Position numbers and translations under genes: made by a program. Shown here one piece after another: positions 6,729 to 7,332 of a stretch of 7,332 bases of DNA (position 1 is the first letter of the stretch; every line of letters starts with the position of its first letter). The DNA is taken from the IMG/VR virus record IMGVR_UViG_2706794686_000014. One strand, written 5' to 3'. Below the pieces are notes generated by a model. It made no database searches. It had not been told where the DNA came from and was given only the letters and a program-made list of their open reading frames with translations. Source of the stretch: a virus (lineage: Duplodnaviria > Heunggongvirae > Uroviricota > Caudoviricetes).

Positions 6729-7320
6729 AGGAAGCTTATTATTAACTCGTCAGGGTCAATTAGTAGAAAACTTCATTGACACTCTGGAAAACTGGCGTGA
6801 CCAGAAGCAGATTATTTCTGTTATCTGTAAAGATGGAATTAAAATTGACGATTCCATTATTACCAACTTTAAAGCCTCTAAAGATGTTACTATCTCTAAC
6901 GGTCTTCGTATCCAGCTAACTTTTCAGGAAATTAACTTTAAAGCAATCGTAGGTCAAACTGATATTTCAGCAGCCACTGGCAAAACGGCTACCACAAATG
7001 ACGGTGGTGTGACCAGTAAGAAGAATGCAGGTAACGTGACCACTGAACGCAATAACGCGCCTATGCTATCGTGCAAAGAGTTAATGAATATTAGCGATGT
7101 ATCCGGTTACGCTCCAGCTATCAGAAATGATATTCTCGATGCTCAGATTAAATGTAATAAGGCTTGGAAGCTGGACTATTCAGACTTAACAGAAGCTGAA
7201 AAAACCAACGTCACCAATGCTAATAGTAACGCTGGTCGAGTAGCTTCAAAGCTTAAAAAGTACTCAGTGTGCAAAATGGCATCTGAATCGATCGCAGTTT
7301 GGCATTCGAATCGATCATGA
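6706..7320 (+). CDS. Continuation of the tail-module gene in frame +1 (frameshifted gene or pseudogene); the track shows only 7009-7320 from a GTG
   Basis: Frame 1 is open for about 205 codons from 6706 to TGA 7318-7320, with no ATG, GTG or TTG before GTG 7009. It overlaps the 3' end of the 6576-6728 ORF by 23 nt. Position after the tape measure gene suggests a distal-tail or baseplate-type protein. Confidence 0.45.
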
Positions 7321-7332
7321 TTTGGCATCCAT
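7277..7332. repeat. 23-bp tandem direct repeat (at least 2.4 copies) running off the 3' edge of the window
   Basis: Unit 1 at 7277-7299 is TGGCATCTGAATCGATCGCAGTT; unit 2 at 7300-7322 is TGGCATTCGAATCGATCATGATT; unit 3 begins TGGCATCCAT at 7323. Units are about 17/23 identical and rich in short palindromes (ATCGAT, CGATCG, TTCGAA, TCATGA, GATC). Confidence 0.55.

Follow-up and report, generated by a model that had tools for sequence, protein, structure and literature searches.

The palindrome-rich 23-bp repeat array at the edge of a phage-like contig is almost certainly the left end of ISSso4, an IS21-family insertion sequence

The analysed stretch of DNA, here called the window, consisted of 7,332 nt of a caudoviral record (IMG/VR IMGVR_UViG_2706794686_000014). 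The window belonged to a small (about 11 kb) prophage-like island that is widespread in E. coli (the window; L009 1880–12920; L010; L011–L018). On the island were the HTH/iteron gene, small ORFs, and genes for a small resolvase, a Dam-like methyltransferase, a large serine recombinase, and tape-measure and Dit-like baseplate proteins. Its integration site lay beside wrbA in L010 and beside yciI/kch in L009. In nucleotide sequence, its tape-measure and Dit genes were in part 88–93% identical to Felixounavirus phages. Capsid genes and other tail genes were absent, and the island may therefore be a satellite or remnant exploiting FelixO1-like phages.

The strongest tandem repeat in the window was located at 338–416 (29 of 33 matches in a 33-nt self-match scan) and was composed of three to four copies of a 22-bp unit, ACCCACTGAGTCAAAATTCTTT, with 86% matches. 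It lay inside the HTH gene (24–948), which showed weak HTH and DnaD_N-like matches, and was followed by an A/T-rich stretch at about 420–480. This layout recalls an origin with iterons inside the initiator gene, as in lambda O. Two masked runs were present at 559–812 (254 N) and 3226–3446 (221 N), where the real sequence was 244 nt each (L013). ORFs across these runs are unreliable because the masks preserve neither length nor frame.

The right end of the island gathered different insertion sequences by strain (L009 12911–15490; L010 5445–8082; L011, L014–L016, and L018 at about 8950–9650; L013 12950–14178). The recombinase gene was occupied by ISEc12 or by an IS3-family element, an ISSso4-like copy lay about 270 bp downstream of the site in the window, and some chromosomes had an IS1 upstream of the ISSso4 junction.

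The Dit-like gene, a pseudogene for a phage baseplate protein, occupied positions 6576–7269 on the plus strand and was delimited by alignment with the intact 789-nt gene of L009 (10742–11530). The intact homologue matched the Pfam family Dit_like (PF21821) with an E-value of 2.9e-20. The copy in the window contained an internal deletion of 74 nt between positions 6723 and 6724, the missing part corresponding to L009 10890–10963. Because this deletion shifts the frame, the gene is, judged from its sequence, a pseudogene, already dead apart from the insertion described below.

Positions 7277–7332 contained 2.4 copies of a 23-bp direct repeat on the plus strand. The terminal unit L1, TGGCATCTGAATCGATCGCAGTT (7277–7299; TGGCAT-CTGAAT-CGATCG-CAGTT), was followed by L2, TGGCATTCGAATCGATCATGATT (7300–7322; TGGCAT-TCGAAT-CGATCA-TGATT), and by the first 10 nt of L3, TGGCATCCAT (7323–7332), which was cut by the window end. 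Tandem Repeats Finder reported a period of 23, 2.3 copies, 77% matches, and a score of 66 at 7277–7330. When the window was matched against itself, 24 of 33 positions were identical at a shift of 23, and 24 matches anywhere at shifts of 10–40 were reached by one of 200 window shuffles; judged from the window alone, the repeat was modestly significant. The same 56 nt held 13 palindromes of at least 4 nt and seven of at least 6 nt (ATCGAT twice, CGATCG, TTCGAA, TCATGA, ATTCGAAT, and ATCATGAT), and none of 6636 other 56-nt segments reached seven of the longer class. The GATC sites at 7290 and 7313 were the sole ones in the 7332 bases, with 21.6 ± 4.4 expected. The original prediction of a palindrome-dense 23-bp tandem repeat with GATC sites was thus borne out by Tandem Repeats Finder and by the palindrome and GATC counts.

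The segment 7270–7332 (plus strand) almost certainly comes from ISSso4, an IS21-family insertion sequence of 2638 bp, and forms the outermost 63 nt of its left end. It was 100% identical to the first 63 nt, in the left terminal inverted repeat region, of the copy (L008 4009–4071) located on plasmid pSS_046 of Shigella sonnei Ss046 (NC_007385.1 110599–113236; 2638 bp, 5'-TG…CA-3'). The window match in pSS_046 stopped about 170 bp upstream of istA/istB, annotated in RefSeq as 'IS21-like element ISSso4 family', and the name ISSso4 was taken by proxy from this annotation. A specific IS name conventionally requires nucleotide identity above 95%, and the full copy in L013 was 99.85% identical to the pSS_046 copy over 2638 bp. 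The feature is ordinary and already known: ISSso4 is catalogued as an insertion sequence in Shigella sonnei and E. coli, and the 23-bp repeated IstA sites at the ends of IS21-family elements are structurally characterised.

The boundary at 7269/7270 was set by comparing flanks. In a megablast search of complete genomes, the homology of E. coli chromosomes with a related island ended at 7269 in every case. The last 62–63 nt of the window were found exactly in seven IMG/VR contigs and in pSS_046; these loci had five different left flanks, and their common sequence always started from TGCAAAATGG (window 7270). The IS terminus, TGCAAAA (7270–7276, plus strand), was placed by the same flank comparison and formed the 5'-TG end, with the cleaved CA on the opposite strand. 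The segment 7262–7332 had hundreds of matches across plasmids and chromosomes, and a junction query was found in 1278 places in 833 E. coli genomes, with up to 34 per genome. Identical ends in unrelated contexts were thus observed, as is characteristic of a multicopy IS. BLAST stretched the IS match back to 7262 because the target duplications of different copies start alike, with CTC. Since 7270–7332 was identical to ISSso4 and its boundary was exact at 7269, this segment is not part of the tail gene. The window held just 63 nt of the IS, and the completeness of the copy was judged from chromosomes identical to the window. The window probably stops here since short-read assemblies break within multicopy IS ends.

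The terminal segment also differed from the island in composition. The island had no GATC site in 11.5 kb, with about 41 expected (window 1–7269; L009 1401–12900; L013 1–9031), and the Felixounavirus phage garuso (L025 1–28801) had none in 28.8 kb, with about 102 expected. In these loci, GATC was found only within IS elements or host genes. Immediately upstream of the window, the GATC-free island nonetheless encoded a methyltransferase of the Dam family (PF05869). Because the host island was GATC-free and GATC occurred only in the IS end, this end was foreign by composition, and GATC marks 7270–7332 as foreign DNA.

The full insertion was reached through a lookup of the exact 726-residue tape-measure protein of the window. 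An exact 40-mer spanning the junction had no match in three contig collections (viral, genome, and metagenome), while the exact junction was present in eight complete chromosomes that share this tape-measure protein. These chromosomes are probably Shigella sonnei, as indicated by neighbouring plasmid accessions. One of them, L013 (CP146292.2), matched the window with 100% identity wherever the window was unmasked and contained ISSso4 at 9032–11669 (2638 bp, 5'-TG…CA-3'), encoding an IstA of 511 residues and an IstB of 251 residues. A 7-bp target-site duplication, CTCAGTG, directly preceded the IS at window positions 7263–7269 and was repeated after the right IS end at L013 11670–11676. Past the right-hand CTCAGTG, the interrupted gene resumed with its last 21 nt, AACCCTAACAAAAAATACTAA. 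In the empty site of L009, …AAGTACTCAGTG was followed directly by AATCCGAACAAGAGATATTGA, with no insert. A short target duplication and an empty site in relatives, both characteristic of the IS21 family, were thus found. The pSS_046 copy was flanked on both sides by the 7-bp duplication CTCAGGC, and the flanking match of the ISSso4-like insertion in L010 was 5 bp only, not 7 bp. Target duplications of the IS21 family range from 4 to 8 bp; that of IS5376 is 5 bp (PMC10122671).

All three ISSso4 duplications seen, CTCAGTG (window 7263–7269), CTCAGGC (L008 4002–4008), and CTCCC (5 bp; L010 5440–5444), began with CTC, and this common start hints at a weak target preference of ISSso4. No identical insertion was found among complete E. 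coli genomes. The nearest case in E. coli, serotype O177:H21, carried its ISSso4-like copy in the recombinase gene, some 270 bp further downstream.

ISSso4 cut the Dit-like gene 21 nt ahead of its native stop. The native tail of the gene, AAT CCG AAC AAG AGA TAT TGA, was found in the empty site of L009 and again after the IS in L013. A mechanically called ORF at 7009–7320 (plus strand) was an artefact of fusion, in which the last 17 codons and the TGA at 7318–7320 were IS sequence. This TGA fell inside unit L2 and was made by the insertion; it was not the stop of the gene itself. The original prediction had placed the repeat in the last codons of the tail gene, which was misleading, as the repeat was foreign DNA inserted 21 nt before the real stop. 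In annotation, what looks like the C-terminus and stop of the tail gene should be treated as an insertion artefact, and the gene as a pseudogene.

In the full element, the left end was composed of TGCAAAA, five units, and a half site, of which the remainder of L3, units L4 and L5, and the half site fell past the window end. The GATC positions in the left end were 21, 44, 68, 91, and 113, which gave spacings of 23, 24, 23, and 22 bp, and the half site was TGGAAT, in some copies TGGCAT. Read inward, the right end contained three units with GATC at 20, 44, and 66. Within each unit, a TGGCAT block and a CGATCA block were conserved, their centres about 12 bp apart; the first block of the right end read TCCGCT or TCGCAT. 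The left and right arrays were mutually inverted copies (pairs I1–I8). The left terminus was TGCAAAATGGCAT… and the right terminus …GCGGAATACGCA, so that 5'-TG…CA-3' ends with imperfect inverted repeats were present, and direct repeats about 23 bp apart with two blocks each, as in the IS21 family, were found at both ends. In the intact copies L008 and L013, the sequence started 231 nt before istA.

The array had been expected to run past the window edge, and five units and a half site were indeed present in every locus that extended further. Extension downstream, the check proposed with the original prediction, gave three more units, followed by istA and istB; the outcome that would have spoken against it, no more copies and an ordinary coding region, was not seen in the extended loci. 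That check also looked for flanking integrase or invertase genes. The genes beyond the array were istA and istB, not an integrase or invertase acting on it. A promoter and terminator scan of the ISSso4 left end found none and gave no support for a promoter in the array. A further inverted repeat, CCGGGAATTAACTCTTTTC and GAAAAAGTTAAGTTCCCGG, was located just internal to both end arrays (L013 9172–9190 and 11580–11598; pair I10), and could be a site for a host factor or an additional site for IstA or IstB.

The genes of ISSso4 lie outside the window and were examined in full copies (L008 and L013, the latter with the same insertion as the window). IstA matched the NCBIfam model transpos_IS21 with 285.8 bits (cut-off 160), and IstB matched IS21_help_AAA with 250.2 bits (cut-off 200) and also the Pfam family IstB_IS21. 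Further Pfam matches of these genes were Mu-transpos_C_2 and, below the cut-off, rve. The two consecutive genes that define the IS21 family were thus present: istA, for a DDE transposase with N-terminal HTH domains, and istB, for an AAA+ helper ATPase. IstA also matched the IS5376 IstA chains 8q4d and 8b4h of the PDB, with an E-value of 3e-13 over residues 73–373, and aligned with IS5376 IstA only from residue 73 on.

The repeat period was compared among eight IS21-family elements, ISSso4, ISEc12, ISVch3, and elements of Pantoea, Pseudomonas, Burkholderia, Sphingobium, and Rhizobium. An autocorrelation independent of the termini was used, as an automated inverted-repeat finder chose inner repeats over the termini in several elements. 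The strongest autocorrelation upstream of istA was at 21–24 bp in all eight elements and exceeded that of all shuffles in each; the period was exactly 23 bp in six of the eight.

The terminal inverted repeats of IS21-family elements contain multiple direct repeats (L1/L2 and R1/R2) 23 bp apart. Within each repeat, the conserved blocks CS1 and CS2 lie about one turn from each other, and HTH-2 and HTH-1 of IstA contact them in the major groove (PMC10122671). In the IstA tetramer, the catalytic subunits are placed on R1 and the structural subunits on R2, and integration needs two complete repeats (PMC10122671). Binding of IstA to terminal repeats and catalysis of transposition by IstA with IstB have been shown biochemically and structurally for IS5376 only (PMC10122671). 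Because the array of ISSso4 fits the description of IS5376 point by point, its 23-bp units are most likely IstA-binding sites. The earlier proposal of a binding-site array or a recombination core was right in this general sense: the units are putative IstA sites, and the place where they lie is a transposon end.

By analogy with the cryo-EM structure of the IS5376 IstA–DNA complex (PMC10122671; PDB 8b4h, 8q4d), the two N-terminal HTH domains of an IstA subunit would each recognise one block of a unit. Several IstA subunits on successive repeats of both ends would pair the ends into a transpososome, which would cut at the terminal CA. ISSso4 entered the 3' end of the Dit-like baseplate gene of the small prophage-like island and duplicated CTCAGTG.

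A regulatory layer could be added to IstA binding without excluding it, in which Dam methylation, possibly with SeqA on hemimethylated sites spaced by about 23 bp, gates the loading of IstA. This is unlikely, though it deserves some weight. GATC was found in the conserved block of all eight units (five left, three right); with one site each, these units accounted for eight of the 13 GATC sites of ISSso4. Repeats with a GATC core were also present in ISEc12 and ISVch3, which come from Dam-positive hosts. Dam is known to couple transposition to replication in IS10 and IS50. The N6-methyl group lies in the major groove, the side from which IstA reads the blocks (PMC10122671). On the other side, GATC cores were found in the repeats of the Burkholderia element ISBmu3 and were absent from those of the Pantoea and Pseudomonas elements, and a literature search gave nothing relevant on Dam control of IS21-family elements. 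To our knowledge, control by Dam or SeqA has not been described for this family. Because the Pantoea element lacks GATC and the Burkholderia element has it, GATC appears to be a recognition motif that was inherited, not an adaptation to Dam. If Dam gating did operate, ISSso4, ISEc12, and ISVch3 would transpose preferentially right after the replication fork has passed.

The remaining readings would replace the assignment to ISSso4. It is very improbable that the array is native to the phage-like island, as a binding array or att core for its serine recombinase or as an operator. A large serine recombinase gene does lie just downstream in related islands, and the array does overlap the apparent end of a gene; however, intact islands were entirely without the array, and the identical sequence occurred in unrelated flanks and, in the intact copies L008 and L013, began 231 nt before istA. 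In addition, a target duplication bounds the insertion, and GATC is present in the array though the island avoids it. Replication iterons or an att site of the host island were rejected as candidates on the absence of the array from intact islands.

A variable-number tandem repeat, that is, a slippage or contingency locus with a copy number that differs by strain, was suggested by the imperfect 23-bp unit in head-to-tail arrangement. Such a locus is scarcely credible here. Every fetched locus long enough to reach past the array had five units and a half site, and a difference of about 25% between units disfavours slippage. With a 232-nt left-end query, of which at least 80% was held by 331 E. 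coli records, the left end measured 232–233 nt among the full-length E. coli copies listed. The variable tandem repeat put forward earlier was therefore not upheld, as both the length and the unit number were constant in the copies compared. Chance similarity or low-complexity sequence without function, which might account for 2.4 copies at about 75% identity with a match count equalled by one of 200 shuffles, can be practically discounted, as the array grows to five units in longer loci, has a mirrored counterpart of three units at the other IS end, and has an architecture kept across eight IS21-family elements.

ISSso4, the assignment preferred here, shares general features with more distant transposons. 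Mu and Tn7 likewise have several transposase sites per end, an asymmetric number of sites on the left and right, and an AAA+ helper, so that MuB and TnsC can be compared with IstB (PMC10122671). These elements belong to other families and differ from ISSso4 in repeat sequence and spacing, and the comparison implies no membership.

Within the IS21 family, ISSso4 resembles IS5376 and IS21 in its direct repeats spaced by 23 bp, the two blocks about one turn apart, the terminal CA, and the combination of an IstA with two HTH domains and an IstB helper. However, ISSso4 has five units and a half site on the left and three units on the right, whereas two per end are described as typical. The blocks TGGCAT and CGATCA of ISSso4 contrast with the GC-rich CS1 and CS2 of IS5376, and the two IstA proteins are distantly related. 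ISEc12 and ISVch3, from Enterobacteriaceae and Vibrio, share with ISSso4 the 23-bp arrays upstream of istA, a GATC in each unit, and a duplication of 7–8 bp, and their IstA proteins are 46–51% identical to that of ISSso4. Their unit sequences, GGAGATCAC in ISEc12 and TTTCGG…CCGATCA in ISVch3, are unlike those of ISSso4. The ISSso4 copy of pSS_046 has the same first 63 nt, the same istA/istB, and the same end arrays as the copy found here, and differs only in its site, which lies in an IS3-family element.
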